NCBI GenBank assembly: GCA_008632985.1
Contig: QPGO01000057.1
Span: 310,001-374,000 of the forward strand
Source: Psammoneis japonica
Lineage: Eukaryota
Direction: 5' to 3'
Length of the DNA: 64,000 bases
Positions 8,303-41,944 of the stretch are shown one piece after another. Within the stretch, counting starts at the first letter, position 1. The number at the start of each line of letters is the position of its first letter. Made by a program: the position numbers and the translations under genes. Below the pieces are notes generated by a model. That model made no database searches. It saw only the letters and a program-made list of their open reading frames with translations, and had not been told where the DNA came from.

Positions 8303-10930
8303 AATTTTGCAGGACCATTGGCACTTTGGCTTGCTGCACTTCGTCTTTGCCATCAGAGAATTCTCCAGATTTTAGTGTTCTTTCTGCACAGTCTTTTCCC
8401 GGTGGCAACAGACAATCCCATTTCCCATTTTCGCCATGACAGACGCAGGTCCATCCTTGGAATGAACATTGGGAAAGCTGCTACCTCTGCTGTTGCAATG
8501 AATTAGCTCCAATCATCAAGCTCAACTGGGCTCAAGAGAAAAAGTGTTCAATCTCCTGACTTGAACCCTGTGCTGAGTGGGACTCTGAAAAATGTCCATG
8601 GCAAAGGTGGAAATGTCAAGCCATCAATGAAGTGAGTTCAAGCAGATGGGAAAGGCATGTCATTGGAAGACACCAAAGAGTTGCTCCACATTTGCTGTGA
8701 ACTTGGCACTGGCCTTTTTGACCTTGGGACTGCCCCAATCTGTCGAGGATGTGGATGAGTTGATTCCTGGTTTCACACTTTTGGGAGTACATTTTAGTGC
8801 AGCGCCTCTTGCCATGGCATCCCAAAAAAATTAATTGTGTTGATTCTTCACTTGCCATTGAAAGCAACAATTGAAAAGACTGCAGCATCAGAGCCATCTT
8901 TGAATTTGTCAAAAAGCCAGTTGTTCTGTCTGTGATTTGTCCCTTGACATTTGCTCTGCACGACACCCACCAACAGCAGCCCTGTGCCCCCTGTTGGGGC
9001 TTTCTTGAGCCGCAAAATGTCAACCAGCTGGCAGAGCTTCAGAAACAGCTGCAAACTGGGAAGCTGAAATGTCATCCTCCACTCTTCTTGCCACTGCCAA
9101 GAGGACTCTTGTTGACTGCATTGCACCCAATGGAATGTGCGTGCTGTTGACAAGACATGCACATGATCAAAACCCTGAAAAGGGCAATTTGTCCATGGAT
9201 GCCAATGACAGAAATGGTTCTCTGGGCACTGCCAAGAACAGCAGCACTCATGGCAGTTGCTTCTGGAGATGGCAACCTCAATGTCTTGGACAATGCTGGC
9301 TGTGTGTCAATGTGGCACATCAACCCAGGCGGGAGTCTCTCCAGCCAGCTGCTGGCTGAAGAATCTTGTGTGAAATTTGCGCTGAAAGAGTCTGTCAATC
9401 CATGTGTCAGGGGGTTTTGGTGAACACTGGATGACTTGTCGTCCATTGGGTGCGTGAAATGCACTGGCAAAATCCCCAAATGCACTCATGAGCAGACTTT
9501 TTTTCAGCCAGCAGCTGGCTGGAAACTTCCCCAAAACCAGCACTGCCAAAATGCATGGACCACATCAATTGCTTTTCTCTTGTCACTTGCTGTCATTTGT
9601 GCTGAAAGAATCACACACAGAGAGCCTCATTGTTCAAGCCAAACAAGGTCCAGAGCTGGGACCCATTTGATTGTCAGGGTCAGCTTTGCCAGACAAGGTG
9701 GGCTCAGCACAAGATGCAATTGTTGTCATGCCTGTGAAATGGCACATGGCATCAAATGTGTGTGCCTTTGCCATTGCAAATGTCATCACTGAATGTGTCA
9801 TGGATGACAGCCCACAGTTTTTTTAAAATCCAAGCCGTCTCATGTCCTGGTGGTGGCTTTGCTTGTTGCTTCTGTTTTGCCAATCATTTCCTGATCACCG
9901 CAAGGCATTCAAACGCCATTTCACAAGCGATTGAAAGTCATCAAGTGGCGCGCATGAAAAAACTGTTGAAGTTGGCCATGGTGTGACTTGCTTCTCTCTG
10001 TGACAGCAATGTGGAGGATCACAACTTGGTTGCCTTGCCATCCAAATTGCCCTCAGTTGCTTTTTTGTCCCAGTGTCATTGTCGTCGGGTTCCAGCAGTG
10101 AGGGACCTGCGAGGTGATCATGGGACATTCCTTTGCATCATGCACTCGCCAAATTTCTGTGAGCTGGCACTCCCATCTTGCAGACATGCATTGGAGACCA
10201 GGCATCATTTCCAATTCATGTCCCTGACAGCATGTGAAGTGACAAGGAACTCTCAGTTGCTGCGGTGAAGGTGTTTTCTGAAGTCTTGCTCAAGGAAGCT
10301 GGCACCTGAGCTCTCTTTGGATGACAAAGACTCACTGTTGTCTTTGCCACAAATCTGCAACATGTGCAGACTTTGTTTGTTGGGTCATGAACATCATTTT
10401 TGAAGCAGTTTGTTTTCCGGCAAGCAAGTTTGCACCAACAAAGACTTGATGACAGCTTTGAACAGAAAGCGCTGGCCTCACCTGTGTCCGCGCGTCCTTC
10501 CAAGATAATGCTAAAGTCAATCAAGCTGCGTGTGAACAACACTTAAGGCGCTTTGGGTTGAGTAATGTCACACGCTTCCAGAGGAGTGGCAGAGTCCCAC
10601 AGTAAATGTCCATGTTGAACAGCAAGGAGATTGCTTGCCTGTGCGTGCGCCTGAGAGGGGCTGCTTTCGCTGAGCGACCACTTGATGAACCCATGAGTCC
10701 GTTGGTGACCCGAATAGACATTAGACATGTAGAAATAGGCTGCAGACTTCATCCACATCTATTCCAGAGTTATTTTATCTGTATATATATACGATCGGCA
10801 TTGATTTTGGGTGTGCAACAGCATTGTCCGTGCAGCCTTCAGCGCGCAGTCTGAGCCGGTGGTCGAAATGCTTGCTTGCACGCGGTCGCTTCATGCCAAT
10901 CAACGCAGAGAGCCTTTGCAACTTGGAACT
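8300..10930. mobile_element. Block B: degenerate TpA/CpG-depleted DNA
   Basis: Only a handful of TA in 8500-10500, mostly tttaaa/ttaat/ttag. Spurious Tyr-free ORFs in all frames. Confidence 0.7.
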
Positions 10931-11177
10931 ACAAGCATTAACGGCAAAATGCCACTTCTTTCTACTCTGCGTTCTCTAAGGCTACTGAACCGCAACCACT
11001 CTGATCCTGCCAGAGGATTCTACTGACGAGTCGCCGGTCCATATCGACAAACATTCTAATAATCTCCAGTGTTATGACTCTCTACCTGAGTGAAAGTATC
11101 CACCGAGCCAGCTTTGCATGACTATGCCATTCTTTGGACGACCTTGCGATCTCCGGTCAAACTGATCTCCGGCCACT

Positions 11178-13675
11178 CTATCCATTCATGTGTTGGGCGA
11201 GCTTTTTGTTGTTTTGTTTCTTGGTGTGAAGCTTGAACTTCATAATGTCCCCAGTGTACTTCTGAACCTTCTTTTCGTCGCAAATGTAAATTTCTTCGGC
11301 ACACTGCGAAATGAGACGCATGTCGTGCGAAATCATCAGGACTCCACCCTGGAATTTTTTCAGACATCGCGCCAAAGCGTCAATTGAGTCCATATCAAGC
11401 GGGTTCGTTGGTTCATCCTAAGAAAGGTGGAAGCAGGATCACAAAGTAAATGAGAGACTAGACAGGAAGTGAATCAAAAGCGGACAAAGTCGACGTAGGA
11501 TAATATCTAAGGTAAAACGAACGAAGGTACTCACCAAAAGCAACAAGTGCGGCTTTTCAAACGAAATAATGGCGAAAACAATTCGCGCCTTTTGTCCCGC
11601 AGACAGTTGGCTCATCACTTGACTCTGTTGGTCTCCAGTGCAACCATACCTACCCAACAGAGGACGGATCCGCTCAATAGGCTCTTCCGGCATGAGCTTC
11701 TGCTTGAAGAAGTCGAGTGGGGTCATGGACAGGTCAAGCTTCTCTTCAAAGTGCTGAGTAAAACGAGATATTTTCAAATGCATATTGCGCTTAACGTCCC
11801 CTTGGTGGGGTTAAGTTCACCCGTCATGAGTTTGATCAACGTCGTTTTACCTTCAGAGTACAGAGAAGAAACAAGTTTAGACACGAAGAACTCATATTGC
11901 GCACATAGCTTGGAAAACCAAGGAGCGCCTCACCTGCGCCATTTGGTCCGACAAGAGCGACGCGAGTCTGTAAATCAACACCAAAGTCTACATTGCTGTA
12001 TAGTTCCTGTCCGCCAGGATAAGCAAAACTGACCCGTTCAATCGACAATACCGGAACAGGCAATTGTCCTGCATCGGGAAAAGACCAATCCCACTGAGGA
12101 TCAACTTCGGGTTTGGGTGTAAGACCTGCCTCGAGTTTCTTTTGCAACAGCTTTTCACGAGCCTGGGCTTGTCGCACCATTTTAACTGTACCGTGGCCAA
12201 ACTACCCAATTAGGTTTGAACAGGAGAACGGCAATTAGCGGTGGCACGATAGTGACAAAGTACAAAGCTGTGATGACTTACTCTGGCAATGAAGTCCTTG
12301 ATCTCCGCAATGTCCCGCTGCTCAGCTTCGTATTGACGCAACTGCACCATGTCTTGGTCCCGACGCGTCTGAACATATGTGTCGTAGTTTCCACTGTAAT
12401 AACGCAGCTTCTTATAGGTCATGTCAAGACGAACAATATGCGTGCACACATTGTTCATAAAATCTTGTGAGTGGCAAACGAAAAACAAAATTTTGTCCCA
12501 ACTCGAGAGATACTCTTCCAACCATAAGACCGCGTCCATATCAAGATGATTGGTTGGTTCGTCTAGAAAGGAGACGAGTGAAAGGGTAAGTGGCTTTTAT
12601 TCAAAAGACATCAGTAGCCAGCGTCACTACTTACCCAGAAGCAAGAATTCCGGCTGTAAAAAGAGTGCCTTTGCCAGCGCCACACGCATGCGCCATCCAC
12701 CACTGAATTCACAAGTCTTCATAGATTGCATCGCCGTTGTAAATCCCAAACCATGCAGAATGGAGGTAGCACGTGATTCGGCCGAGTTTGCATCAAGCTG
12801 GTCCAAACGATCATAAATGACTTCGAGCCGTGCTTGAATGTCTGCTTGTTCGTCCTCATCGGCGTCCGCCATGCTGGCATTCAAATCTTCTGCTTGCTTT
12901 TCTAGCAAGACAACCTCATTGTTGCTCTCCATGACAGCCTCCAAGGCAGTAATATCATTGCGAGCTGGGTACTCGCAATCCAAGAAGTAAATGTCCAACG
13001 CATCCGGAATCGGAATAGCCCGAGCCGCAATGGCTTTCATGATTGTGGATTTTCCAGATCCGTTGGGACCGATGAAGCCGTACCGGTTACCATAGTTGAT
13101 AACAAGCTCCGTCTCCTCAATGAGAGGCTTACCATGAAAGTTGACACTCACACCACCGACATTGATATCACGAGTGTTCGCATGCAGTGCTCCTTTTTTG
13201 CTTTCATACGTCACAACAATCTCGTCTTTGGACAACTGATCAAGTGCAGCCTGACGCTTGGCATCTTCTATGGATGCCATATCGAGTGGAGCGGTTTCCT
13301 CTTCCTTTTTCTCTTCTTCTTTTTCTTCTTCGACCTTTTTCTTTGCGGACTTTTTCTTTCCCACGCCCTTAGCCGCCTTGGCCTTCTTCTTGGCTTCTCT
13401 CGCAGCCTTGGCAGCAGCCTTTTTCTCTTCCTTTGTTAATTTTCGTTCATACAACTCTTCTTCTCCCTCTGTTTCGTTCATACACCGACGTGTTAGTGTG
13501 GCACGCAAACATCAAGAAAGAAAAACCGGCATAAAGACTCACCTCCCATGGCCGCAGCGCGAACGTCAGACGCAAGTGTTCCATCAAAGTCAATCTTGTC
13601 TCCACCGGTGTCAAGCTCCTTATTGATGGCAAACTCAGCCTGCCTGGCGCGTTTCTCGTTGTATCTCTTCGCCAT
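11178..13675 (-). CDS. ABCF2: ABC-F family translation factor ABCF2/Arb1-like, multi-exon
   Basis: Two ABC domains (GPNGSGKST, FSGGWRMR, DEPTNHLD; GPNGAGKTT, LSAGQKAR). Exons ~13675-13543, 13468-12635, 12562-12282, 12201-11934, 11850-~11535, ~11418-11178. One-base frameshift in a C/G run at ~11800. Confidence 0.95.
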
Positions 13676-14105
13676 GGTGTTGCTTGTTTTCTAATTTGCC
13701 GTGGGAAATTGTGTTGGCTGTGACTGCCGAGATGATTTGCACGAACAAACGTGGCCAGAAAATCGTGTGACCGCAGTTCCAAGAAATAGCGCGCGCACAG
13801 ATGACCTCATGACGTTTTGCAAAATGATTGGCTGAGAAGAAAACACGTAGAAAATGTACTGCCACGTCGCCATCGTACGGACAGGTAAAAATCATATACA
13901 AATCCGAATGAAATAAATCATTTATTTTTATACAAACTGAATAATACATAAGATGATTTTGATTTTCAATTTCTCCCTCCGACCTACCTGCGCTGAACAC
14001 CATGAAGAAAAGAAAGCCGAATTTTGAACGACCGGAACGACTTCTTTTGTGAGAATCGCAATAAGCGACACGAAAGTCCACTGATAATTGGTTTCGACAA
14101 TTGGA

Positions 14106-14987
14106 ATGCCGTTCAGTCCATTTTATTTCTTTGTACTGTGTGTGACGTGCTTTCTAATTGGAAGGATCGAATCGTTTTCTGTTGCTCCCGCCCCCCAACG
14201 TGGTCGTGCTTTTGGGGTGACTAAAAAACAAGCGAGTCAAAGACCACAACAAACAAAACCGACTTGCATATTTTTAAAGCGTAATATCATACGACCGGAG
14301 TACAAGAGTATCGTTTCCATGCCTGCAAGCCAACAACCACTTCAAGACAAGAATGAGAATGGCGTTCTTTCGAAATTGATAAAGGTGATTGGTTCAACAA
14401 CAGCCATTGTTGTAGCCGGAACCTTCTTTGCCATCTTGGCGTACAAGAGAGATGCACTTATGGTTTCATTCTTCTTTGGTGCAATTGCGAATGCAATCCT
14501 CAGCAAAGTGCTGAAACGATTGCTCAATCAAGATCGGCCCCAAGATGCACTACCCAACGACAACATTGACAAACCCACAGACAAGGGAATGCCATCATCT
14601 CATGCCATGAGTCTGGGATTTATTGGAACATTTACGGGTCTACAGTTGCCTCAAACAAGATTAGCTATCTTTGCCTATGTCATGATTGCATTAGCCTATC
14701 GGATAAAAACAAAGCTGCACACTTGGCAACAAGTGGCAGTCGGACTTGTTGCCGGCGCTTTCAATGGGGCAGTTTGGAAACTCTCAGTATGCAACGGAAA
14801 CAATCCTTTTCAGTTTAACCTATTGGATTGGACCACGAAGCACTTGTTGAATGCACAAGGGGTCTTGCCCGTCTCGTACATGGCCGTGCCTCTCCTCGTT
14901 GGTGCTCTAGTTGTAGGATCTGTCGAAAGAAGAATCAGTCGTTGGATGAAAACACGAGATGACGACGAAGAATCTAAAAGCAACTAG
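14106..14987 (+). CDS. PAP2-family lipid/dolichyl-pyrophosphate phosphatase
   Basis: KRLLNQDRP, GMPSSHA and RIKTKLHTWQQV motifs; TM segments; signal-peptide-like N-terminus. Confidence 0.9.
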   Translation: MPFSPFYFFVLCVTCFLIGRIESFSVAPAPQRGRAFGVTKKQASQRPQQTKPTCIFLKRNIIRPEYKSIVSMPASQQPLQDKNENGVLSKLIKVIGSTTAIVVAGTFFAILAYKRDALMVSFFFGAIANAILSKVLKRLLNQDRPQDALPNDNIDKPTDKGMPSSHAMSLGFIGTFTGLQLPQTRLAIFAYVMIALAYRIKTKLHTWQQVAVGLVAGAFNGAVWKLSVCNGNNPFQFNLLDWTTKHLLNAQGVLPVSYMAVPLLVGALVVGSVERRISRWMKTRDDDEESKSN

Positions 14988-15827
14988 TGTGAAACCCCAA
15001 GCTGAGATATTTAGTGTTGACGCATTGTTACGGAACAAGCAGCGAACAAACCCGTCATCATCCACCAGCATTGCGGCCAAGCCTAGCAACATTGGAAGCA
15101 CGTACCACCGTATACAAGTTGTATTGAAAATTTCGTAAAAAAATACATAGCGATCCATAAGAAGTTCAGAAGCAGAAGAAGTATCTGGGGTGGGAGACAC
15201 CTACACTAACCGTATTCGTAGCGGTAACCGCATCAACCCGTTTTGTTTCTAGCTTGTCTAAGTCGTGGGATCTGTTCTCTAAATCAATTGCCGGCTCTCG
15301 TTGATTACACAAATACGTCCTATGAGTCCTTTGCATTTGCGACCAAGCCCAACATTGGAAGCAGTAGGTGCCATTATTGTCGCTTTCCCAATTTTAGAGA
15401 AAGACAGTCAGTTTGGCATTTGCGTTTGGAGCTTGATCACATTATCCCTGATCTCACTATCCAGGGGCTAGCATTTTCGTTTTCTTTAGATATCCGACGG
15501 TCGAAAAAGAACTGCGCTCTTTGCTTGACGATACGAGCTAGCTTGTCACACTCGATGATTCCTGCCAGGGCAGCAGCAAACAACGTGACATGATGCTTGG
15601 GGGTATCGAGTTATGATTGTCGTCCAACCAACTAAATGCAAATTAAGTCAGCCTCCTCCAAATTATGCCAAGATTGCCACCGGTTTTCTCGTCAAGCTGG
15701 AAGTTCGTAGTACGTGGACAATTACGGCATTGCCGGCCTCCGGTTCTCGTGCAGTTGCCATTCTGTATTGATTAATGGCAAACCTTTGTTCCATGTGGGT
15801 AGCTCTACAACTATCGATCTAATTATG

Positions 15828-16541
15828 CTAAAGTTCAATCTTTGCAATTCGATACCAATCGGATATCTTCCCCTTGGTGCTCCACAGAGACAAGTATCGT
15901 GGTCGAAAGGGTCCAAGCATCATTTCAGCCTTTTGTTGTTCTTGCTGTCGGTTTGAGTAGTCTTGCAGCCACTCGGCGTAGCACTCTGGTGCATAGATGA
16001 AAGCCAAGTGTGGGATAAAGTCTGCTGTTTGGTGTCGCTCATCCGGTGGAAAGCAATTCTTGACTGCATCTTGAAAATTTGCCAGTTTCTCTGTTTTTTC
16101 CACAAGCAACATGTGAATAACACAACCAAAACCTCGTCCGTTGTCTGCAGTCTTTGGGTATTCAAAATAGTAAAACTGAGTCGGGCACACAGCGATGGGT
16201 AATCCATCGTCTTTACTTTGAAAATGTCGGAGTGCTTGGTGGAGCATTTGTAGTCCAACCTGTTGTTCATTCTGATTCTTGTCAATCGTAATTGCTTCGG
16301 TCGGTATATTGTACAAGAGAGTGACGTGAGGAACAAAACTATGACACCCGCGGTTTGCTCCACCACATTTTTCGGATAACTCCTTTACTTCCTTGTACAA
16401 ATGGTGGTGGTGGTCAGGACACGGTTCCAACCACACCGACCATCCTTCAAACTCGTGATCAAACACGTCCGTACTCTTTTCGTTCTGCGGCGGATAATTA
16501 GCGGTATCTGAACAGTTTCTCTCGTTGCAGTCATGATCCAT
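15828..16541 (-). CDS. 2H phosphoesterase / cyclic phosphodiesterase-like
   Basis: WSVWLEP, FVPHVTLL and FIPHLAF (two HxT-type motifs). Confidence 0.75.
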   Translation of the reverse strand: MDHDCNERNCSDTANYPPQNEKSTDVFDHEFEGWSVWLEPCPDHHHHLYKEVKELSEKCGGANRGCHSFVPHVTLLYNIPTEAITIDKNQNEQQVGLQMLHQALRHFQSKDDGLPIAVCPTQFYYFEYPKTADNGRGFGCVIHMLLVEKTEKLANFQDAVKNCFPPDERHQTADFIPHLAFIYAPECYAEWLQDYSNRQQEQQKAEMMLGPFRPRYLSLWSTKGKISDWYRIAKIEL

Positions 16542-16789
16542 GGTCTTCGTAGTCTCTAACGCTTAGCAGCTTTACTCCTAACTGTACACCGCCAGATGAT
16601 TAACCGCAGGAGAACCTCCAACGACGACGCTGTAACCTCATTCATTCGCGAATGTGCGGATGGTGTTTGTGCGATGATCTCTATGATGATGAGTAAGTGA
16701 TGCAGAAAAGTCGCTCAGAATGTCCTCTGTACATACATACAGAAAACGTAGAAAAGACATTTTTCGTTGAATGACGGTCCCAGCACCAT

Positions 16790-19700
16790 TGACCCTCACA
16801 TGCACCTCATCTTATTTTGTGACAACAAACAATCGAAGGCGGGAACCATTGAGTCTACACGGTTCCGGCAATCATGTCTTGTGTTTTTCACCCTGCAAGG
16901 AAAGAGTGCTTGTTGAACACAGCAGTCATCATCAACTGTGTAGCGGGTGCTCTTTTTCTTCCTTGGATCTCGGGGTGGCACTGCCAGCAGGTGGCCTTGC
17001 CTCTCTGTTTCCAGTGCATGGGGCAGCACGCTGTGAGGACACAAAAACAAGAACACATCCAATCATCACCACAGCAATGTCCAACATGATGACAAGTTGG
17101 AGAAAGGGGTGCTTGGCACTTGTGCCCCACAACAGACTTTTCTGTGGTCTCTGAGCTCTTGGACCATGCCAGAAAAGAAGTGAAAAGCAATTGATGCCAA
17201 ATCAGAAGACACTCTGGGAGCCACCCAACAAAAGCTTTTGCATGCTTGCTGACTTGTTTGCCAGTTGGGCTGATGGATGTGTGTGTGCTCCATGCAAGAT
17301 TCTCTTCAAACACAGTGTGGCTGATGTGGCGTGCCATTTTCTTGGAGGGCATGAAAAGCTTGGCCACAAATGTTGGAGCATCGGGGTGCAAGGCAGTTTT
17401 GGGAGGACAGACAGACAACATTGCAGCAAAAGATTGCTGACTGTTGTGGATGATGTCAAGAGTGATGCCCACTTTTTGGCTTCTGCACCAGGGCGGCACT
17501 GTGATGCATTGGCAACAACAAGGTGACAGCGCTGGACATGTGTTTGCAACCCATGTGGCGAGCTCTTTGGAGTTGATGAGACTGATGCAGATTGGTTGTT
17601 GAGCTATGATGTTCCAACACAGAAGCCAAAAAGGCCAGCTGGAAAGTCAAGAGGAATCCAAGGAAGAGCTGGAGCTCCTTGAGAGAAATCCAAGACTTGG
17701 TTGATGCAAGCAATCATGGCATTCAAGCTTGCTGAACCAACAAGAGTCATTGCACATTTCATTGCTCCAGCCAAAGGAGTGTCTGGTGAAGAAACAGTCT
17801 CTGGAGGGCCTTGCCATGAGCAGCTGCAAGGGTCCCTGCTGAAAGAGGGCACAGCAAGGTTGTGTCAGGCCAAGAGAAACATCAGCGTGGGCAAAGACAC
17901 AACTGAGCATGGAAGTCTAAAAGACTTGAAGGAGTGGGTGCACAATGCCATTGTCAAGTTGGGTTGACTGGCAGATGGATGCACAGAAACCATGAGAAAA
18001 AGAACTGAGTGCATTGGAAGAATGCTCAGGCCAGAGATGCAAGCTCTGGTGTCTCTGAGGCAATGGAGCAGTTCAATCCAAAGGAGCCAGAGCATTCATT
18101 GGGAGCAACCACATTGGAGAAAGACAAGGCAGTCTGGGAGAAATGATGCAATCACTGCATGGAACAGGGCTGATCTTCAGGCTGCAGAAGGTGAAGGCAT
18201 TCCACTCATTTGTGGGATTGTGCATGAAAGCTGCACATGACAAGATTGAACGAACAAACAAGCTTGCAAAAGTCACAAAGGAGTGGGGCACAGCGGTGCT
18301 GCTGGGAATTCTCAAGTTGATCTTGTTCAGTGCAAATGAGAGACTCCACTTGCATGTTCGGGCTGTCAAGGCATGGAGGCAGTTGGTGCTCATTCATCAA
18401 GAAGATGAAGGAGAGGTGCTTCAAGATTGCTGTGATTGGTTTGCAAGGGCTGTTGGGATGGCAGAAGGATCCCACTGCTGCAGGATTGTCCTGGAAGAAA
18501 TTGCCAAGAAAGAAATTGGGTTCAGTGCAGACACTGAAGATGCCCAGGAGAAAGGAGAAAGAGAGGAACAAGCTGTGAGCTGTTTTGCCAACAGAAGAAG
18601 GTGTGCACCAACAGAAATGTTGGCATGCCTTTTAAAAAACCTGTGCTGACAGTTTACACTGGGGGTGGACACCGCAGCTGTGTGGACATGTGCAGGACCA
18701 GCAAAAACCCTGAGGGTGAAAGTTTTGCACAACAAGAGAAGAAGGAACAAACCAAATGCTCTGGAAATGTGACAAGGTTGAGCATGCAAAGAAGGAACAT
18801 CGTTTGCTCAACAATGATGATGACCACTCAATGGCAGAGTTTGAGGATGTGATCTGTGGGTCCAATCAAAGCTGTCAGTGTGTTGTTGGATGGCACAGCA
18901 TTCAACCACAGTGTGGTGGTTGAGGTCAGTCAATTGATGGCTTTTCAGAAGTCAGAAGGAGTGCGGCATTGGAACATCAGGGTGCAAGGCAGTTTTGGGA
19001 GGACAGACAGACAGACAATGTTGCAGTGAAAGATTGCTGACCATTGTGAATGACATTGAGAGTTTGTGTGTGTAGACTCTCCATGAACACACAGGTTTTG
19101 TGCTCACTCAAGGGGCAACAGTGCCGCTCAGATGTGTGTTTGCAACCCACGCAATGAGCTTTGGAATTGGCAAAACTTCTTTGGGTTGGCTGGCAAGCCA
19201 TGACATTCCAACAACAAAAGACTTGTGTTGCTTCTCTCCCACTGCCACGTCATTGTCAAGACTGCCGATGATGCACTTTGCTCCTTTTTGACCACAGCAC
19301 TGCAGCTGTGCTGCTGACACTGGCCAAGGTGCAAGAACAAAGCTGCCGTTGCTCCTTGCATGCAACCATGCAACAGCATGAGCAAACAAGTGCGATTTGC
19401 AGAAAAGCTGGCGTGGGTTCAGGCTTGCAAGCCAACGAAGCTTTCCCCACCCAGCCCACTTGCTTGGCTGCACCTCGATGCCCTTGGAGCAGCAGTTGCC
19501 AGAAGTTCACAAAAAAGACTCATGGGAAAGGATTTCAATGCCCCCCAAACGAGCATGCCGGTGCATGGAAACATGGGGCTGCATCAATTTGCTGCCAGAG
19601 GGAAATGTGCTGCCTCCCTTGCACACCTGGTCTGCCGATCACACAGGGGCCCACAAAAGTGACACAGGCCAGCAGGTGGTGGTGGCTTGCACGCTGGCGC

Positions 19701-19800
19701 TTGTTCCCAACAGCAGACCTGCAAATGACCGTGAGAAGAGATTCCCAACCTCCTTGGTGTTTGCTTTTGACCTCTTGTTAAGCAATGATGTTGCCATCGT
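16790..19800. mobile_element. Block C: degenerate TpA/CpG-depleted DNA with an internal direct repeat
   Basis: About six TA sites in 16900-19780; direct repeat 17371-17463 / 18967-19063. Confidence 0.7.
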
Positions 19801-20185
19801 ATCAGTGGTGTCCCTCTGCTAGAGCAGCCAGGCCCAGCAGCCAGCTAGCTTCTTGTCGAACAGTGTGGTCGATCCGTCGGTCGGTGGGAAAGCTGCGGGA
19901 AGCCAGAAAGAAAAGTTCCTAGCAATCCAATTGAGATTTCAAATCATTATAATATGATGAATTTCTTTCTTTTAAAAAAGCAGCTAGGGAGTTCCATCGT
20001 GAAGAGAGCCGCAGAAAGAAATTTCTCCACCTGGCGGCAGCATGTTGTATGCGAGCAAACGACAAAGTTATTGCAAAGGTGGTCCGATTGCAGTTACAAT
20101 ACAGAGAACTGTACCGAACAGGAACCCTAAAAGGAGAGTGGAAGAAGTATTGTGCAGGAGAGTGTATGGCTTACGCTTCACATTC

Positions 20186-23100
20186 ATGATGAAGCCACGT
20201 TGTCTTTCACGAAGGACCACTGTCGCGTTGTTCTTGGTTGGTATGTATGCAATGACCAGAGTCGACGTAGCAGCGGCAGCCAAGAGACACCGCGCAATAC
20301 CTTTTGTGAATAGTTTGCTATTGAATAAGAATGCACTGGTGTCGTCGAATCATGAAAAATCGGCAGATTTCGACCAAAGAGACGATCGCCAGGATGATAG
20401 AGATGAAGCTACGAGCTCCAGAACAATTCCAAAGGAAACGTCTGCTTACAAACGAGACCAGAACAAAGGCGACGATACACCAGAGCCTGGTGTCGGAGTA
20501 GGAGTCAAAGGAAAAAAGAGCAACGCCGTGGGTGATCCGGACGGGAACTCCTCGGATGACGATGATACTACAGATGACTCTTCGGAGTGGGAAGAATTTC
20601 TGGAAGAAATGCAAGAGATGGGTCTCGACGAAGTAGTAAATCAAAATGCTAATTCACCACATGAGGATGGAGAAAAGAAGGATAATGGAAGCGTGTCTGT
20701 TGAAATGGAAGTGGTCAAGGAACAAGACCATCCACTATCTTCTTCTTCATCTTCTTCATCAGGTGTTGGGTTACGACTGGCGAATCGTATGAAACGAAAC
20801 AAGTTGTCCAGCGCCACTCAACCCAAAACCGACACACTAGCATCCAAAGAGAGATTATATGATCAGGCTATGTTGGAAGCATGGTTACCTCACGTCTACT
20901 TTCCCTTGGAGGACACTTTGCAAGAAGAGTCCTACTTACGGTCGCACGCACGCTTGTTGGACGGCTCGAGCAAGTCTCGTTTGGACCGAAGGACCTTGTA
21001 TGGATCATTGCTGTTAGAATGGCAACACTCTTCGATATCCTCGCGCAAGTTCCTTAACCCATCCACCTCCCAGAGCTTACAAGCTGCGCTCAGTCTCGCT
21101 ACGCAACCCAGATGGAGACAGTCTTTCCCACAGGCAAACGTAATATCCATGTGGGCAGAAAAGGAGACGACTACCACCTTGGCCATGCAAGAGACCATTG
21201 CCATGGCGCTTGTGAGTATAGCTTGTTGATATGACGAACCTGCTATAATGATTTGAGGTTTCAGCTTCGCCTCTCACCTTACTCTTTCTGTTTCTTGGTC
21301 TTTTTTTCTTGCAGGCTCATTCCTTGGGCTGCGGTATGGTCGTTTTGGACGATGGCGTCTTGGAATCCGTACGAGAGGACCTGAAAAATGATGTAGACGC
21401 TGACGAAAAGCCCGTGACACTCATCAACGGCCTTCTTTCCTTGGCAAATAGCGGTAAACTCGAGAATTTTCCCAAGAAAAAGAGTGGTTCGATTGCCGCG
21501 TGCATGGAACGAGAATTGGAAATGGGCCTTGACGATCCATTTGACGACCGCGCTGTGACGAGTGCACAAGAAATGAGAACATGGGAAACCGAAGTTTCTA
21601 ATCAAAAACAAGGTGACGAAGAGAGACCCATTCCCCTCGTCTTATTCATAAAGACGGATTCTTCCTCGACGCTCTTGAAGAGCAAGTCCGCCGTCGATCA
21701 GTTGATACAGGAATGCACATCATCAGATAGTATTCATTTGATTGTACTGGGTAAGGGTATTGATGCAACGACTGAGACTCTGCCTGTGGAGGAATTTGCG
21801 GATGCAAGTGCGGAAATGTCCATGTCCGAAGGCAGCGGGAGCATGACGGCTCGTAACGGCATCGCCGGTGCTCAACAAGGCCCCTGGTTTGGATTCTCAC
21901 CTCAGAATCAGAACGCATCTGGTCTAAACGACCCAGAGGGATCTAGACGATTCAACATATTCTTGGCTCGTACAACTGATCGAAGCGGAACACCGGGCGT
22001 ATTGGGAGCGATTGCTCCACCCCAAGCCGGCAATTTGTTCCCACACATGATGGCATTGCAAGCACGAGAGAGGCTTCAACAGGAACGACAAAATAGCAAC
22101 GCGCAGAATGAAGACGCAAACAGCATGGCAGCTCAGGTGGAACAGTGGGCGCAATCCATGCAGCAGCACATGCAGTCGCCAGGCGGCGTCCCGTTCCCGT
22201 CTCCACAGTTCTTCAACGCGTCTCTGCATCCTGGACAGCAAGCTAATGATCAGAGTCCGCAGCAGCAGCCGCAGCTCCCGCCTGAAGTTGTTCAACATGC
22301 ATTGCAGCATGCAATGTCAGACCTCCTGGATCGACTGGCTCAGATCAATCAAGAAGAGGGAGTCGACGATATGCAGAACAGTGGTCCTCCGTCCGAGCTT
22401 CATCCCGATCTGCACCGAGCCTTTGGGCAGGTCTTGCAAAATGAAAACTTACGGCGGGGTATTGCCGACAACTTGGCCCGTGCAGCACCTGCCTTGGTGG
22501 ATCCAAAATGCCAGGGAGTCATGTTGAGTGTCTATGTACCACCTCCATCGCATCATGAAAATAGCGGTAAGTTGCCCGGCCAGATCCAATCGGGCAGTAC
22601 GTCAAACCAACAGCAGCAGCAGCAGGAGCAGCAGCAGCAGCAACAAAAAGGGTGGTTTCACAAAATGTTACACAATGAAAACAGCAACGCTGGAGCTTCC
22701 GAAAATATTCAACAGGATAATGCAAACGGAAAAGAAGACGACAGCATGAATGAATCCAGACGCACCTCTCGAAAGAATCGTGTAAGGACTTTGGCGGCTG
22801 CATCAACGGTCCTGAGCACGGCAGAGAATGACAACGAAGAAGCAACCAACGCTGAAAAGAACAAAATGGAGCGCAACCTTCAAAAGTTTGATACTCTATG
22901 CCGACGTATTGCTGTTAGGTCGCCAGTCGATCCCGTTCGTCGCAAATCATGGGATGCATGGATTGCGCGAGAACGTGGTGCCGTTGTCTTTCGTCAAAAC
23001 CGTCGTTCTCTTCACGCCGAATTAGAGCACCGTCGACTTTTATTGCAGGAGCGCACTGGCACCCGAGGAGTGGGATCGTCACTCCGTCAAATGCTAAGTG

Positions 23101-24558
23101 TCCGTGATGTTAGCGACGAAATGCAGGATGTCATCAAGTGTGCGGTTGAATTAGAAGCGGCCAAGAGTCAGAAGCATGAACGACTCGTAAGTTTCTGTTG
23201 AGCAAGTTGCGCCTTTATCCAGATCTCTGAATAGCTAATGGTAATGCCTTACAATTTCCTTTTGTTTTGTGCAGTCCACACTGTCCGAGACACCGAATAT
23301 TGCCGAAAAGGAGTTCGAAGCCGACGTTTCGCTACATCAGCTGTTGGTCAATGACGACGGCGAACTTTCTGAATCACTATCGATGGAGGCCACTTCTACA
23401 GACAAGTTGAAATTGCAATACCTTCATCCATCCAGTCTTGAGTCTGCACTGGCAATAACTTGTCGCTTGAACCCATCTCCATCGGGCGGACTCTCTGTGT
23501 CATCGTCTACGACTCCCGCCTCACACAGAAGCCGTGAGGATATTGCTGCTCTGGCTCAAGACAAGCATGAACGTGCCCTGGTATCACAAGTTGTGTCACC
23601 CCAGGATATTGGTGTCACCTATGATATGATTGGCGGATTGTCTGACGTCAAGGAGTTGTTGAGACAAAGTATTACTTACCCACTCAAATTCCCTCATTTG
23701 TATAGCGAGGGTATTGCACGAGAGGCAGTAAAGGGAGTATTACTCTTCGGCCCTCCGGGTACAGGTAAGACGATGTTAGCAAAGGCGGTCGCGACCGAAG
23801 GAGGCGCCAGTTTCTTGAGCGTGGATGCGTCGTCCGTGGAAAATAAGTGGCTCGGTGAGTCAGAGAAAAACGCCAAGGCAGTCTTTACTCTGGCACGCCG
23901 CCTTGCGCCGTGTGTGATTTTCATTGACGAAGTTGATTCACTGCTTTCGAGTCGGGAGGGGAGCTCGGATGATTCTGCTCATGGGACGTTGACAAGTGTC
24001 AAAACGACCATGATGAGTGAATGGGACGGCCTCAACTCGGGCACCAATGGCAGCGGAGAAGCCGGTTCAGATCGAGTCGTCGTGATCGGATCTACCAACA
24101 GGCCATTTGATCTGGACGAAGCCGTATTACGCCGATTCCCACGACGCATTCTTGTGGATTTACCTGATCTCGAAACTAGAACAGAAATTCTGGAAGTCAC
24201 TTTGGCCGAGAATAGGCTCGATCCCTCTGTGAATCTTACATTGATTGCAGAGCGACTCGAAGGGTACACAGGGTCGGACATAAAAGAGGTTTGCCGTGAA
24301 GCCGTGGTTCAAATCAGTCACGAACAAGCAAAACTGGCTGACCAGGGTTCAATGGAAGACGACTTCTCTCCGGGATCTTTGCAGAGACTGCGGCCGGTTA
24401 CGATGGATGACTTCGAGAAGTCTATGAGTAAACTGAAGAGGAGTGTGTCCGAAAGAGGTAAAGAGCTCTCGCGCGTGTGGGAGTGGAATGATGAATATGG
24501 AGAGATTAAGAGGGAGAAACGCGACCACCTCCCGCAGCTGATGAACATGTTTCTGTGA
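20186..24558 (+). CDS. Large AAA+ ATPase (ATAD1/Msp1/spastin-like) with long low-complexity N-terminus
   Basis: GVLLFGPPGTGKT, IFIDEVD and STNRPFDLDEAVLRRF. Introns 21212-21314 and 23187-23274 keep frame. An upstream in-frame ATG exists at 20042. Confidence 0.9.
22608..22643 (+). repeat. CAG/CAA trinucleotide repeat encoding poly-Q
   Basis: caacagcagcagcagcaggagcagcagcagcagcaa within AAA ATPase exon 2. Confidence 0.8.
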
Positions 24559-25039
24559 GGGCATAGGGCGTGTGAACTGTTGGAATCATCCCGGATCTGT
24601 TTCTCATATTTCCATGTTGCATGGACACCTAATCTTATACTTTAACAATTTACGTACGTTAACTAACAACTGACTGTGTGGATTGATAGCCAATAGCTTT
24701 TCCATTTCATTTAACAACTCTGATTCCTCCATTGCTTCCATCTCGAGAAGCTTGGGAAGCTTCCGCGCCGTGACAAGTTCCGACACCGTTGCCACATGAA
24801 CATTAATAAGTTGACACAATCCGTCCATTTCCGTCAACTTAACTTCAAGTAAATCATCAATCAATGATTGTCTGATAATTCTTTTTTTGTATGACGTCTT
24901 TCAGCCAGTCAGTTCGCTTTCTACAGAGGCGCTTGTCGGGTTTGTCATCATTGTAAATTCACAAATTCCGTCTTTGATTAGAGTCACCTCTGGAACAATT
25001 AGGAACACCACCACTGTCCAATGGTCGTAGGTCCCAGCA

Positions 25040-26600
25040 TATCAGGGCCAAAAAGAACCTTCCATTGAACATTGTCAACCACAACAAAAAAGAGATCATG
25101 AGGCCCCAGCTTGCTTTTGGTGTCATCACAAGCTTTTTTGATGAGTCGACTCTGCTTGTTGTCTCCGAGCAGTGCTTCAAGACAATGCCACACAAAAAGG
25201 TGAGCATAGCATGTCACACACACCTGCCTTTGAATGACATTCCTGCAAAAATGTTGGCACTTGACCTGCTGCTCCTGCTTCCACTTGTGGGTTGTGAGTT
25301 CTTTGGATGAAATCGGGTGCCAAACATGGAGCCAAAAGGTGTGACTGCAAAGAAGCATCTCTTTCCAAGTTTGCAGTGCATTGCAGTCAAGGTTCCTGTT
25401 ACAAGGAAAAACTGGATTTGGTGGCTCTGGGCTCTCATTGTCTTCAACATTCTTGGTTGATGACGCTTTGACAACCACTTCATGAAAGGCCTGAAACAGC
25501 TTCTGAAACTCAAGACAAACTGACAAATCAATGTTGTCTTTGCCAATGGGAGTCTGCATCAAAGCAATCTCTTCATGTCTCACTCTCTTGTTGTCACAGT
25601 GCTTGCTTAAACTCAAAACCCCCAAAAATGTCAAGCGCAAAAACCACCATCCCCAGACAGTTTGCAAAAACGTGGCAGTGTCCTTTCTGAATCAAGATGT
25701 TGCTGTTGTTTCCATGCTGACAGATTAAAACTTGGACCTTTTGCTGGTTTGCATTGCACACTGGTGAAGCCAGCATCATGCTGCACAAACTCCATGCCTT
25801 CACAACAATAACAAAACAAACTGATCAGCAAATCTTGCGAAATGCATTCTTGGCCACCTTTTCGACAAGTCACCCGCAGTGGCACAAAACACACTGCCGA
25901 CCAGTTTTGTGGACCAACTTGCCTTTGGAGCAGTCAAATCTTCATGGAATGACAGTCAAAGTAATTCCCACAAACCACATGACAATGACAGCGAACATGG
26001 GGATTGCAGTGGTGTTGGTGGCTGCTCCAAGGATGACCAAGATGGGGGCACAGGACCAGGCCATTGGGTCAGTGCTGGGAAGGGAGCAACAACACTCAGG
26101 GTGACAAGCAGTGATCAAACGGCCAGCATGGATCTGCCAGCCACAATGCTGGCAGTTCCTATTAAGCAATGTCTTTAGCAGAGGTCTTGAGCCTCTTTGC
26201 ACTGCAAGTCAATCACGATGTTGCCAATGAGCTTGACTTGCTGGACGTTGTTGATGAAGAAGAGCAGCGTGCATTTGTGCGGTCCTTTGCTGCCAAACAC
26301 ATCATCCCTTGCAAAACAGGCTGTGAATGCGAGCATGACACCTGGCCACCTTCCACTGCAATTCATCAATGAAAATGGGCCACTCGCAGTCATTTGTTTT
26401 TTTGTGTTGCATGCACCATGGGGGCACGATGTGAAAAACACATTCGTCAAGCAAAGAAAGCAAAACAACGGATCCCCTTGACGAAGCGGCAGCAACAACA
26501 ATGAATCCCTCTCTGGTCGATGAAGCAATGTTTTTGTGGGTTGGCACACCGTCTTTGCCAGCATCCAACAATCCTTGTGGACACCCCTCTGCTCTCTATT
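25040..26600. mobile_element. Block D: degenerate TpA-depleted DNA (relic of a large ORF on the minus strand)
   Basis: No TA in 26178-26596. Minus-strand protein-like text (LGPHDLFFVVVDNVQWKVL) continues into less mutated DNA at 24604-25000. Confidence 0.65.
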
Positions 26601-26858
26601 CTATGGCATGTCTGAGGACCGAGCAGCGACAATGCCATGAAGCACTTCTGTCACATGAAAATGTATAATCCCATCGCTCAATAAAAAGTATGTTGAATTT
26701 TAAAAGTATCCAGAATTAGATACATTTATCATCGCTCACATTTTCAACGAAAAGCAAAAAACAGATGAGATGGCGATTCACACCAAGACATCATCGTCAG
26801 TGTGCCATCGTTCGCATGATCCACTCATCTGATCATATCTATCTAAATTCACAATATA

Positions 26859-27862
26859 ATGAAGCGACAAGCTTTGGGAAGTAGTGCACTATTTCTTCAG
26901 GAACAGCGGAACGACAAGAAACGCTTCTTCACCAATTTCACGACCACGAAAGGCTTACTTTATGGCTTTGTGATTGCATACGTCGTTGCAGTCTCCGTTG
27001 TCTTTCTAGTTGAAAAATTCTTACCGGACTCTATCTTGTGTGGAAACGTAACGTTTAGTGACGAAGAAATCGCTCGCAGTAAGCTGGAGTACGGCAATGT
27101 GAGCTATGAATATGATCCTTGTCGACATGTCCGCACCCCTTTTCTATTGTTCTTTACACGGAGCGAATGTGACTTTGGGCGTCGTTTAGTTTGTTCTGTG
27201 ATTCTTGGAGCTATCGTTGGTTGGGAGCGTAGGGAAGCCGACCGACCGGCTGGAATCAGGACCATGAGCTTGGTCAGTCTGGGTGCATGCCTATTTAGCA
27301 TTGACTCCGTTTTTGCATTTTTAGATGGGCCTATGACGTGGGATTCTTCTCGAGTTTCTGCTGCAATTCCATCAGGGGTTGGATTCATAGGTGCAGGATT
27401 AATCTTCAAGGAACAGATTGAGGATAAGGAATCGGGTAATTCAACGCATATGGTTCACGGTCTTCACACAGCCGCAACGGTGTGGTTGGTAAGCAATGCT
27501 ATACGTTTCCTGATTAATTATTGAGCTCTTTTTCTGGCCGTGTACTTTTACTAACTTTAATCTGTCTGTTTCAGTCCGCCGCCATTGGTGTGGCGTGTGC
27601 CGGTCGTTTGTATTTTCATGCTTCTTTTACCGTGGCGTTAGTTTTGTCGGTCTTACGCTTCGGCCCGCGTCAGGTACTTGGAGATGAAGATGACGATGAT
27701 GACGGCCAATTTCCTGGCTATTCCTCGATTGATTTATCGACCGGAGAGGGGGACGTTGAAGACCCAGAAAGGGAACCGTTAACTCCTCTCAAGAGGTCGA
27801 AGAAGAAATTATTGAGTCTTGGCACTGGGATGCGAAAGCGGCCATCGTTGGGTGCTTTCTAG
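26859..27862 (+). CDS. MgtC/SapB family membrane protein
   Basis: LGAIVGWERR, PAGIRT, SGVGFIGAG and GLHTAATVW|SAAIG; intron 27489-27574. Confidence 0.9.
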
Positions 27863-28107
27863 AGAGAGCACAGGGAGAGTTGGATTGTATGCGAAGCATC
27901 GGTGTTTCCAGATTGGCGATTCCTAGTTTGACAAAATAGAGACTATTTGCTAACGCGAAGTGCGGTTTCGACAAAGCTGTACTTTTCACGCCTACGATGT
28001 CGAAAAAGAAAGAAGAGCGTGCTATTCTTTGCTAGTAAGTATGCAAGTAGCTCGTAGCCAACTACTTTTCATATCATAGAAGACTCTAGAGGATGGAGGA
28101 AGATGCA

Positions 28108-38318: not shown

Positions 38319-39928
38319 ATGCTGAGACCAGGTCGTCAAGCCAACGGCGGTCTTCCGACGAGTTATGGTGGCAATGGAAGCAGCAATAGCAACGGTGGAA
38401 GTAGCTTTGGAGTAGGATACGGCGGCGGAGCTCCGAGCAACGGATATGGAGCCTATGACGGTGGAGCTGCATCATCGACGCATCATCGAAGTCACTATGA
38501 CGAGGACAATAACAAATACAAGCGACGCAACAGTCAGACCAACATGGCATCGATGCTAATGAATAAGTTTGTTATCTGCCTCGTGATTGCCTGGTGTTGT
38601 TGTGCACCACGTTTTACTACCGAGGCAGCGGTGCTCGTGTGCTGAAGCAGTTGGGAGTCAAGTCCATTGAAGAAGCCAAGGAGCAACTCCACTCTATTCA
38701 CGGAGAACGAGATCAATGGCGTAAGGATACCAAGCGAAACATTCAAGACTCGAGAGCTATGGATGATAAGGCTCGTCGTCTCGAAGAGAGGAACAAACAA
38801 CTCGAGCGGGAATCAGAAGAGCTTCGTACCAAACTTTCAAAGGTGGGCTCTGAGGTAAAAATGTCGGACGGACAGAAAAAGACAATTGAGCACTATGCCA
38901 AGCGCGATACGGCTTGGAGACATCAGGTACACAAGCTGCAAAATGCTACTGCGAGGGAATCGAAACGTGCTGCTCTGGAACAGTAAGTAGAGTGTGGGTG
39001 GTGTGTGTCATTCTGTTGAAATGTGCTTGGAACTGACGCACATGCATTCTTATTCTTGCGAAATAGATTTGGAGCTGGTCCACACCGCGTCAAGGTGTCT
39101 CTTCATTTGCCAGACGATATAGAACCCAATCCAAAGCATTTCTTTGTCCTTGAATTGGCACCCTTGGATATCATGCCTCATGCGGTTCATTTGTTTTTGC
39201 AGCAAGTCCATCACAAGCTATGGGATCACACGTGGTTCTATCTCAACGGTCCTCACATTTTGCAGGCTGGACCTCAAGCCTATGAGGACGAAGATGATCC
39301 AGAGGACGAAGCAAAGCTCAGGGAATTTACCAAGCGACAGTTGGATACCTTGGCCTTTCCGGAATACTCGGCCAATTACCCGCATGCCAAGTGGACAATT
39401 GGCTTTACGGGACGCCCCGGTGGACCGGATTGGTACATTAACAAGTCAGACAATACCCGACCCCACGGTCCGGGTGGTCAACGCCAACATACCTTGATGG
39501 AACAGGCAGACTCGTGCTTTGCCAAGGTTGTGGAAGGATTTGACATTTTGGAACGGCTCTTTAGGTTCCCAGTCTACCATGATGACGAATACAAGAACTT
39601 TTTCGAAGAGCCCATTGAAATTCTGTCGGCGCGAATGTACTATGGAGACGAAAAGGAACACCCCTCGACCGAGAAGGAACTCAAGGAGGAAGAGAAAAAG
39701 GCAGAAGAGAAACCCAATCACCATGAACACGAAAAGAAGAAACCAGTCAAGTCGCATAGGACGGACTTTGATGACGATGATATCCTATCAGATGAAGATT
39801 GGGAAGACGAATGGGATTATCACGACGACGAATTCCATCATCACGACCACGATCATCATCATGAGGACCATCATGAGGATCATCATGACCACGATCATCA
39901 TGAGGACCATCATGAAGCCTATCATTAG
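38319..39928 (+). CDS. Membrane-anchored coiled-coil + cyclophilin-like domain protein with His/Asp-rich tail
   Basis: FVLELAP...PHAVHLF, HILQAGP, IGFTGRPGGPDWYIN and CFAKVVEG; intron 38983-39066; frameshift at ~38590. Confidence 0.75.
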
Positions 39929-40015
39929 AGAAACTAGTTGCTGCGTAACGAGTAGTATACATGCTTTTGTATTTTGTACTTGTGCCGTGAATTACAATTG
40001 TGCTGAGTAACTAGC
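39868..40015 (+). repeat. Direct repeat copy 1 (3' end of the cyclophilin-like gene)
   Basis: Near-identical to 44167-44320. Confidence 0.9.
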
Positions 40016-40630
40016 AGCGGAACAATCGCGATGTCGAGGTTCAAATATGCAGATCCACAACCGACGATTGTGGAAGGGAAAATTTGGCGAGCCACGATTT
40101 GAAATCAATCCCAAATGCTTTGCCGGCTGTTGAGTCAGCATCATCATCCCAAACTAAGAAAAGAAAGCTATGTGGATGAATTTTCGGAAGCACGTTCTGC
40201 TATTGATTTGGATTTTCCTATAACCGCTGTACTGTAGCGGCCCTTTACCAACTACGGTACAAGTACTTGCTGGGGAATACAGGAGCACCGTTTCCCTTTG
40301 ACATACATGATTTGCCCTTGATGGTATGTTGGCAATTATGAATACGGCGTACACATACAACTAGCTAGAGGGTGGCTTCTACTTTTAGCTACCATAGTCT
40401 GCTAGCTCTCCTCTGACTCGGTAAAGCTATAGCTACACAAAGTGGTGTTAGGAATGGTAGTCGAAGTAAAAACTCTACGGTAGAAAAGCGAACGATAATG
40501 ATAAATATGTTGTACTATACTTTCTGCTCGAAGCTAACTAATAACATATACCCCCTTGATGATAATCGAGACTCACTAACGTCTCGATTGCATTGTCTCC
40601 CAACTGACATTCTAAGGCTTCCAGGTACTT

Positions 40631-41691: not shown

Positions 41692-41944
41692 GGTGGACCG
41701 TGAACTGACGAGCAATTCAGAAATTGTGAGAGCCTTCGAACGAGAAGAGATTCTGTCTGCAATTGAGGCAACTTGGTACAAACCACGTAGAAATCTACGT
41801 GTCATCAGCCGTTATCGCGTTGAGTTGATGTTCGCAGAAAGTTTCGCGATAGTTATTTTGGCGCAGTTGTCGTACCTATCGATCTTAGTCTATCGTGCTT
41901 TTAACATTTTCCGTCTCAAACGTAAACATCTGTGCTTCACTTTA

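Follow-up and report, generated by a model that had tools for sequence, protein, structure and literature searches.

The stretch analysed here, referred to as the window, comprises 64,000 nucleotides (64 kb) of contig QPGO01000057.1 of the diatom Psammoneis japonica (assembly GCA_008632985.1, positions 310,001 to 374,000 of the forward strand). Its G+C content is 47.6%, and its overall observed-to-expected (o/e) ratios are 0.45 for the dinucleotide TA and 0.75 for CG. The subject of this analysis is a set of six blocks, each 1.6-5.5 kb long and together 17,020 bp or 27% of the window, from which TA has almost disappeared and CG has been largely lost. Block coordinates were taken from separate two-state hidden Markov model segmentations of TA and of CG, and edges were also placed by 95% change-point intervals. 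The blocks and the features discussed with them are as follows.

1-5540, no strand: block 1, by segmentation; cut by the window start; its core at 2000-5000 holds 10 CG and 6 TA in 3 kb.
877-1316, no strand: less-mutated island in block 1, with 8 TA and 14 CG in 441 bp (TA o/e 0.23, CG o/e 0.67).
5022-5976, plus strand: C-terminal fragment of a methylmalonate-semialdehyde dehydrogenase (residues about 228-503, about 55%), straddling the right edge of block 1.
8505-10505, no strand: block 2, by segmentation.
16857-19778, no strand: block 3, by segmentation.
25041-26596 (TA-low) and 24970-26215 (CG-low), no strand: block 4, by segmentation and change-point intervals.
25600-26328, plus strand: disrupted 3' gene fragment belonging to a conserved diatom protein family without a Pfam domain (profile positions 188-414 of 417).
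26177-26596, no strand: TA-free stretch at the right end of block 4.
41944-44221, no strand: block 5, by segmentation; 1 TA in 2.3 kb.
51428-54150, no strand: block 6, by segmentation.

The island at 877-1316 may have been inserted later or may have been protected, and an open frame within it (890-1279, plus strand) has no Pfam match.

Within the blocks the o/e ratios are 0.05 for TA, 0.18 for CG, 1.77 for CA and 1.83 for TG, against 0.58, 0.97, 1.18 and 1.19, respectively, outside them. In counts, the 17,020 bp of the blocks contain 47 TA, 182 CG, 1865 CA and 1962 TG, and the 46,980 bp outside contain 1916 TA, 2547 CG, 3533 CA and 3386 TG. The summed fraction of pyrimidine-purine steps is 0.238 in the blocks and 0.242 outside, and G+C is 48.3% and 47.3%; since both are hardly altered, the lost TA and CG must have become CA or TG, and thus by transitions only. 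CA and TG are equally frequent in each of the six blocks (binomial P 0.16-1.0), which indicates that both strands were hit alike. Two further candidates were set aside on composition: RNA-level editing of a retro-element, given the equality of CA and TG in all blocks, and GC-biased gene conversion, given the similar G+C (48.3% vs 47.3%) and a rise of AA/TT in place of the expected fall.

The interval 26178-26596 (419 bp), at the right end of block 4, had been singled out in a sequence-only reading as a place without TA that still holds 13 CG, and this count was reproduced. The flanking TAs at 26176 and 26597 bound a TA-free run of 421 bp, which has a probability of 3.8e-8 at the non-block rate of 0.0406 TA per bp; non-block sequence, over its 46,980 bp, has no TA-free run longer than 212 bp. 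Over 26177-26596 the o/e ratios are 0.52 for CG, 1.63 for CA and 1.89 for TG. In place of the 13 CG observed, the non-block rate would predict 22.7 (P=0.02), the block mean 4.5 (P=9e-4) and the block-core rate 2.3 (P=1e-6), and CG in this interval is about half depleted rather than untouched. The stretch is therefore real and significant, yet a detail of larger domains in which TA is abolished and CG is poor.

The same reading had named three other block edges with this pattern, of which only one stands. The interval 44080-44166 (0 TA, 7 CG) does lie at a true edge but is only 87 bp long, with P=0.03 alone. The interval 5510-5740 holds 3 TA (at 5541, 5547 and 5555), and its TA-free portion of 193 bp is shorter than two runs found in ordinary genes (212 and 207 bp). 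The interval 10797-10928 (0 TA, 9 CG) is off the block edge, with about 290 bp containing 17 TA between it and block 2, and TA-free runs of 120-145 bp such as this are common in normal sequence.

It had also been claimed that TA loss reaches beyond CG loss, which does not hold as a general rule across the 11 block edges of the window. In the segmentation, TA loss extends further out at five edges (by 24, 36, 10, 381 and 141 bp) and CG loss at five (by 212, 78, 71, 22 and 88 bp), with one tie. The separately fitted boundaries lie 2-88 bp apart at eight edges, the larger distances being 141 and 381 bp (TA further out) and 212 bp (CG further out). The 95% change-point intervals of TA and CG overlap at 10 of the 11 edges. 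There is no overlap at the right edge of block 5, where TA-low sequence runs 141 bp past CG-low sequence, and a bare overlap at the right edge of block 4, that is, at the TA-free stretch; at nine of the 11 the edges coincide within resolution, to about 100 bp, and offsets occur both ways. A meta-profile of TA and CG over block boundaries, which had been proposed as a check of the claim, was run on these 11 edges: when pooled, the profiles of TA and CG rise within one and the same 100-bp bin, with no general overhang of TA.

The two losses do differ in completeness. TA is more completely lost than CG in every part of every block; in four block cores CG o/e is 0.06-0.12 and TA o/e 0.01-0.04, and five zones without any TA retain a CG o/e of 0.31-0.52 (1317-1934, 9825-10505, 19074-19778, 43764-44221 and the stretch at 26178-26596). 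CG is also less depleted towards the edges, standing at 0.27 of the outside density in the last 400 bp inside the blocks vs 0.16 deeper (63 CG in 4,400 bp vs 56 in 6,600 bp; P=0.005, or P=0.03 when the edge with the TA-free stretch is removed), whereas TA shows no such taper (0.056 vs 0.09, P=0.23). TA and CG loss are thus decoupled in completeness, TA being saturated and CG graded, but not at the level of domains.

The sites that survive in the blocks are of particular kinds. TTAA makes up 16 of the 47 surviving TA in the blocks vs 82 of 1916 outside (Fisher P=2e-10); such sites are present in all six blocks, and seven of the 16 lie within TTTAAA. The density of TTAA is 0.94 per kb in the blocks vs 1.7 outside, so that 55% is kept, while the corresponding values are 0 vs 2.98 for ATAT and 0.06 vs 3.36 for GTAC, and ATAT, GTAC and CTAG keep 0-6%. 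Surviving CG, by comparison, are enriched in G/C flanks: GCGC amounts to 9.9% of them vs 4.6% outside, and TCGA to 4.9% vs 9.0%. The products are skewed as well. The xCAA class gains 340 in the blocks and the xTGA class 116, where gains of 394 and 173, respectively, are predicted if A before A is spared and 283 each otherwise; this skew fits the view that A followed by A (equivalently, T preceded by T) is not a target.

Two recognisable gene fragments, each the 3' part of a host-type gene, show that the changes arose in place and allow them to be followed in codons, the ancestral state being compared at the protein level for these two. The first is the dehydrogenase fragment, through which the boundary of block 1 (about 5517-5540) cuts. 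Aligned with 44 full-length homologues, the fragment shows 43 differences at columns that at least 80% of them conserve. Of the 20 differences that lie in the block, 10 are single changes of CG or TA to CA or TG, against 1 of the 23 outside it (Fisher P=0.001). The in-block codon changes comprise CGA->CAA, CGC->CAC, TAC->CAC, ATA->ACA, TCG->TTG, GCG->GTG and ACN->GCN after T, and the residue changes R->Q/H, Y->H, I->T, S->L, A->V, T->A and E->K. The same fragment carries, at 5650-5778, an insertion of about 105 nt relative to its homologues, between the LGV... and ...FSFGG motifs; this is probably a retained intron, which would make the fragment genomic and not a processed retro-copy.

The second fragment, in block 4, was recognised with a profile of a 66-member family that is widespread in diatoms (hmmsearch E=1.6e-27 and 1.7e-25), with support from tblastn, and it shows frameshifts and in-frame TGA stops. 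When the plus-strand translation of the TA-free stretch was searched with HMMER, 33 matches were obtained, of which 31 align residues 1-53 to their C-termini, and the last 53 or so codons of the fragment (26178-26336) lie within the stretch. Judged from these alignments, the TA-free stretch consists of the final 53 or so codons of a dead gene copy and about 260 bp downstream. In conserved columns the fragment shows P->L by CCG->CTG, R->H by CGC->CAC, Y->C by TAC->TGC and Y->R by TAT->CGT, with further changes of Y->H and R->Q. The TAT->CGT change, at a position that is Y in 27 of 31 homologues, is a double change that turned a TA into a new CG. A search of 140 non-block open reading frames (ORFs) against the blocks gave self-overlaps only, with no degenerate paralogue in the window.

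A short duplicate stands at the right edge of block 5. About 160 bp are nearly identical between 44166-44330 and 39885-40030, 4.3 kb apart, and take in the His/Asp/Glu-rich C-terminus of a gene ending near 39928, together with its stop codon and the first part of its 3' flank. The in-block part of the duplicate has no TA differences and is uninformative on the direction of change. Its second copy lies exactly at the block-5 right edge, and thus blocks 1, 4 and 5 each end rightward with the 3' end of a plus-strand gene fragment. A tandem repeat with a 9-15-bp period (family D1), encoding a His-rich low-complexity tail, occurs at 39816-39925 and 44148-44239.

Apart from these fragments the blocks contain little that can be named. 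Because TAA and TAG are nearly absent, they give open frames of 200-235 amino acids that are spurious, rich in Cys, His, Trp and Gln and without Pfam homologues, for example 16942-17646, 25002-25691 and 43464-44153, all on the minus strand. A Pfam search of the 137 open frames of at least 70 amino acids in the blocks found two dehydrogenase pieces and a weak chance match to CILP_5th (E=0.004), and six-frame read-through scans against Pfam matched in none of six frames for block 2 and none of six for block 3. Comparison of blocks with one another by blastn found short internal repeats only and no family common to the blocks. Block 3 has an internal 85-bp repeat at 17373 and 18969 with 87% identity.

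The blocks are reproduced in a public DNA sequencing run, denoted X1. Its contigs, at a depth of 61-68, reproduce window positions 8001-28000 including the blocks, and one of 9,536 nt (depth 61) takes in block 4 together with its flanks on either side (19011-28000) and has 12 other letters. Some block sequence is present in many copies. In block 2, 9335-10001 has a summed contig depth of 2688 vs about 65 elsewhere, and in block 3, 17339-19339 has a depth of 276-563 vs about 61; the two regions draw 4-40 times the single-copy depth, and this depth comes from diverged contigs, so parts of blocks 2 and 3 are repeat families. Differences among the X1 contigs (290 transition vs 126 transversion places) mix alleles, paralogues and repeat copies and were not used.

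We consider it somewhat probable that two context-specific transition processes rewrote the six domains in place and were aimed at the same, probably silenced, DNA. This target would comprise repeats and gene fragments next to or inside them, and the domains would be methylated or heterochromatic. The first process would remove TpA by A:T->G:C transitions on either strand, giving TG or CA, or CG where both strands are changed; it would be saturated throughout the domains, with a sharp edge and with TTAA spared, and may be enzymatic and still active. It matches a TpA-only hypermutation seen in the alga Bigelowiella natans, for which adenine deamination has been proposed. The second process would be the slower, flank-dependent loss of methylated CpG by deamination of 5-methylcytosine (5mC), converting CG to TG or CA, and CG loss would be graded, near-complete in cores and about half in some flanks, because of this slowness and flank dependence. 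In the TA-free 420 bp the first process would have finished while the second is half way.

Mettrop et al. (bioRxiv 10.64898/2026.01.13.699255) describe mutation-accumulation lines of B. natans in which the mutation rate of two integrated viral regions is about 1000-fold that of the remaining genome. According to this preprint, A->G or T->C changes account for 210 of 211 and 20 of 20 of the new mutations in the two regions; all occur at TpA, at a rate of about 6e-7 per site per generation, and the process is episodic and line-specific. The B. natans genome is reported to have 124 TpA-poor, CpA+TpG-rich clusters of mostly unannotatable sequence, and an ADAT2-like enzyme that deaminates adenine in DNA is the authors' proposed cause of the hypermutation; the main text of the preprint mentions no CpG, diatoms or flanking context. 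Under its thresholds (rho TA <=0.43 and rho CA+TG >=1.52 in 1-kb windows), 18 of the 64 1-kb windows here pass, forming six runs of 2-6 windows, three of them of at least three windows and three of two.

The likeness lies in the same dinucleotide and the same products, TpA becoming TpG or CpA by strand, although this is known here as a long-term signature only, and in kilobase-sized TpA-poor, CpA+TpG-rich clusters of largely unannotatable sequence; both organisms are algae of the stramenopile-alveolate-rhizarian (SAR) group. There are also differences. B. natans is a chlorarachniophyte (rhizarian), whereas the present organism is a diatom (stramenopile). The region of nucleocytoplasmic large DNA virus (NCLDV) origin in B. 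natans has rho TA 0.45 in the preprint, far above the TA o/e of 0.05 found here. CG is co-depleted in all blocks (o/e 0.18, with R->H/Q, S->L and A->V), so that the spectrum here is not almost exclusively AT->GC as it is there. The targets reported in B. natans are viral or foreign, while host-type gene fragments are among the sequences hit here, and no viral or transposon domain was found in the open frames of the blocks or in the read-through scans of blocks 2 and 3. Finally, TTAA is spared here and the main text of the preprint gives no flank rule. CpG co-depletion and the escape of TTAA are thus additions to the B. natans signature.

For the CG component the nearest known process is the decay of methylated transposable elements (TEs). 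Diatom transposons are CpG-methylated via DNMT5a, and in Phaeodactylum tricornutum the loss of this enzyme is accompanied by a global methylation loss, with young TEs over-expressed (Hoguin et al. 2023, PMC9998398). The blocks resemble such decay in that CG->TG/CA change is limited to repeat-bearing domains, in changes of the R->H/Q/C type and in the survival of G/C-flanked CG, with methylation of the blocks presumed. They differ in their TA loss, which is stronger and more uniform than the CG loss and which methyl-CpG decay cannot bring about, since TA->CA/TG is an A:T->G:C transition and impossible by 5mC deamination. The contention of the sequence-only reading that TA loss is not a by-product of CpG decay is accordingly borne out by its greater completeness, by the different survivors and by this direction of change.

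More tentatively, it is proposed that diatoms may have an enzymatic, TpA-directed DNA adenine-editing defence like that of the rhizarian, either old or recurrent across SAR, which would be recruited to cytosine-methylated silenced domains and have T-A-not-A as its target. Some TA would become CpG and then undergo methylation decay, and the 420-bp stretch would be a place where the fast TpA step is done and the slow CpG step unfinished.

Several points weigh against the account of two processes. Every TA-depleted 1-kb window is also CG-depleted (CG rho <=0.59), and with losses so tightly co-located the two could be one system. The TTAA and product-asymmetry results assume that the blocks started with the composition of their surroundings; moreover, T-flanked products derived from CG are equally skewed, and part of the asymmetry may be CpG-derived. 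The two recognisable block sequences (in blocks 1 and 4) are host-type gene fragments, and transposon or viral domains are absent from the block frames and from the read-through scans of blocks 2 and 3, which leaves a foreign origin no more than possible. The platform of run X1 is off record, and X1 may be the assembly's own sample. No such block was found in about 96 kb at nine diatom-like metagenome loci around the orthologous glutathione-reductase gene, these being the longest or closest of 80 and too few to call the trait rare. Lastly, in this organism we infer both the activity of the processes and their targeting.

In the repeat-induced point mutation (RIP) of ascomycete fungi, C->T changes at CpA make TpA, so that TpA is in excess and CpA in deficit. 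The blocks share with RIP a domain-limited, transition-only decay of repeats on both strands that can spill over into unique sequence alongside, but the direction is opposite (TpA 0.05 and CpA 1.77 in the blocks). One coupled RIP-like system that makes both changes in the same episodes, perhaps triggered by duplication or silencing and possibly combining a RID-related DNMT4 with a deaminase, with the graded CG as its flank preference, appears unlikely. It would agree with the presence of both losses in all six blocks with edges in the same 100-bp bin, with the lack of any 1-kb window that is TA-depleted and normal in CG, and with the multi-copy parts of blocks 2 and 3. DNMT4 enzymes related to fungal RID are reported in 31 of 60 diatom species surveyed, with function unknown (PMC9998398), and ADAT2 of animals and trypanosomes is reported to act as a deaminase on A as well as on C in DNA (10.64898/2026.01.13.699255). 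Such a system does not readily explain why the 421-bp stretch and four further zones have lost all TA and keep 31-52% of their expected CG, nor why TA and CG survivors differ in context, and the TpA process of B. natans runs without reported C->T (210 of 211 and 20 of 20 mutations being A->G or T->C in the preprint). Neither of the mutated gene fragments has a paralogue within the window.

In Escherichia coli, very-short-patch repair of T:G mismatches, linked to Dcm, is thought to have depleted CTAG, and thymine-DNA glycosylase (TDG) acts second best on T:G mismatches followed by A. Both suggest that repair begun at methylated or deaminated CpG might turn TA into CA or TG, either by over-correction at TpA by a T:G glycosylase or through error-prone long patches, an explanation we regard as improbable. 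The E. coli case is the nearest analogue, since a TA-containing word is lost there as a side effect of a cytosine-methylation system; that effect, however, is genome-wide, mild and confined to one tetranucleotide, whereas here all TA but TTAA is lost, in sharp domains and to a degree exceeding CG loss. The restriction of TA loss to domains of CpG loss is as repair would have it, and futile or aberrant excision has been reported for human TDG (PMC11488719). Yet TA loss exceeds CG loss and is complete where half of the CG remains, although the opposite would be expected if it were a by-product of CpG repair, and the TA edge is as sharp as the CG edge, with no decaying tail outside the blocks. 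The TpA process of B. natans, episodic, line-specific and 1000-fold above background in the preprint, looks enzymatic. The more specific suggestion of the sequence-only reading, long repair patches initiated in methylated DNA, finds no support here: template copying by itself gives no reason for a change at TpA only with TTAA exempt, and B. natans offers an observed alternative.

It is very improbable that the blocks are imported or selected DNA, viral or mobile, which always avoided TA and CG through nucleases or RNA-level selection against UpA and CpG. Such an origin would accord with the lack of recognisable host function in the blocks apart from the two gene fragments, with the multi-copy state of some block parts and with the joint suppression of CpG and UpA, which is well known in RNA viruses. 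The boundary that bisects the dehydrogenase fragment speaks against it, as Y->H, R->Q/H and I->T occur in the in-block half only, and the same types of change are found in the block-4 fragment. We know of no reported selective suppression that comes near a TA o/e of 0.05, and the conserved pyrimidine-purine total points to transitions on pre-existing sequence.

Modification-induced mis-calls are mostly transitions, and an assembly artefact in which a long-read base-caller mis-called 5mC at CpG and a modified T or A at TpA would look as expected (C->T at CG and A->G at TA, on both strands and in sharp domains) on an assembly whose platform is unknown, but this is hardly credible when X1 contigs at a depth of 61-68 reproduce the blocks, with 12 other letters in about 9 kb for the 9,536-nt contig, which makes a base-calling artefact unlikely, and when the gene fragments in the blocks are truncated, frameshifted and bear transversions, as truly degenerate sequence does.

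The single description of TpA-only hypermutation so far concerns one rhizarian alga and dates from a preprint of 2026 (10.64898/2026.01.13.699255), and a literature search found no description of joint TpA and CpG depletion blocks in diatoms. If the account of two processes is true, a second case in a diatom would mean that hypermutation at TpA is not the quirk of one species. It would also make its end state visible, with TA essentially abolished over kilobases, and tie it spatially to CpG-depleted, presumably methylated, domains. The sequence rule that emerges, TTAA spared and direction set by the flank, could serve for testing candidate deaminases. For annotation, blocks with almost no TAA or TAG yield long spurious ORFs and hide dead genes.

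Outside the six blocks the window is densely filled with eukaryotic genes, and 12 of 15 long ORFs tested there match Pfam families, including CDC20, a mitochondrial carrier, a Vps4-like AAA ATPase and thiamin pyrophosphokinase. The ORF for glutathione reductase is 86% identical to unnamed proteins and 85% to a protein of Seminavis robusta, the remaining named matches being from diatoms. On this gene content the window is read as nuclear DNA, of raphid-pennate type by its protein matches. Rfam and transfer RNA (tRNA) scans of the 64 kb found no family and no tRNA.

Three plus-strand ORFs (20042-21229, 21309-23201 and 23269-24558) form one spliced gene spanning 20042-24558, the last of them being the Vps4-like AAA ATPase. 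In a second public run, X2, a contig of 4,403 nt links 20060-21211, 21315-23186 and 23278-24653 and omits about 103 and 91 bp; because of these skips X2, although listed as 'DNA?', behaves like complementary DNA (cDNA). X2 contigs leave the blocks almost uncovered, which was not used as evidence on expression. At 11052-11644 run X1 also carries a second version, which differs by dozens of substitutions and accounts for about half of the total depth (64/126); the cDNA-like run X2 has this version alone. It represents a divergent allele or else a close paralogue, the expressed copy being unlike that in the window. On the minus strand, 56253-60058 holds two overlapping ORFs encoding a RecG-like helicase (wedge, DEAD, Helicase_C and RecG domain 3) followed by an RNase T-type exonuclease domain; the pair is probably one gene divided by an intron or a frameshift, and the fusion is unusual.

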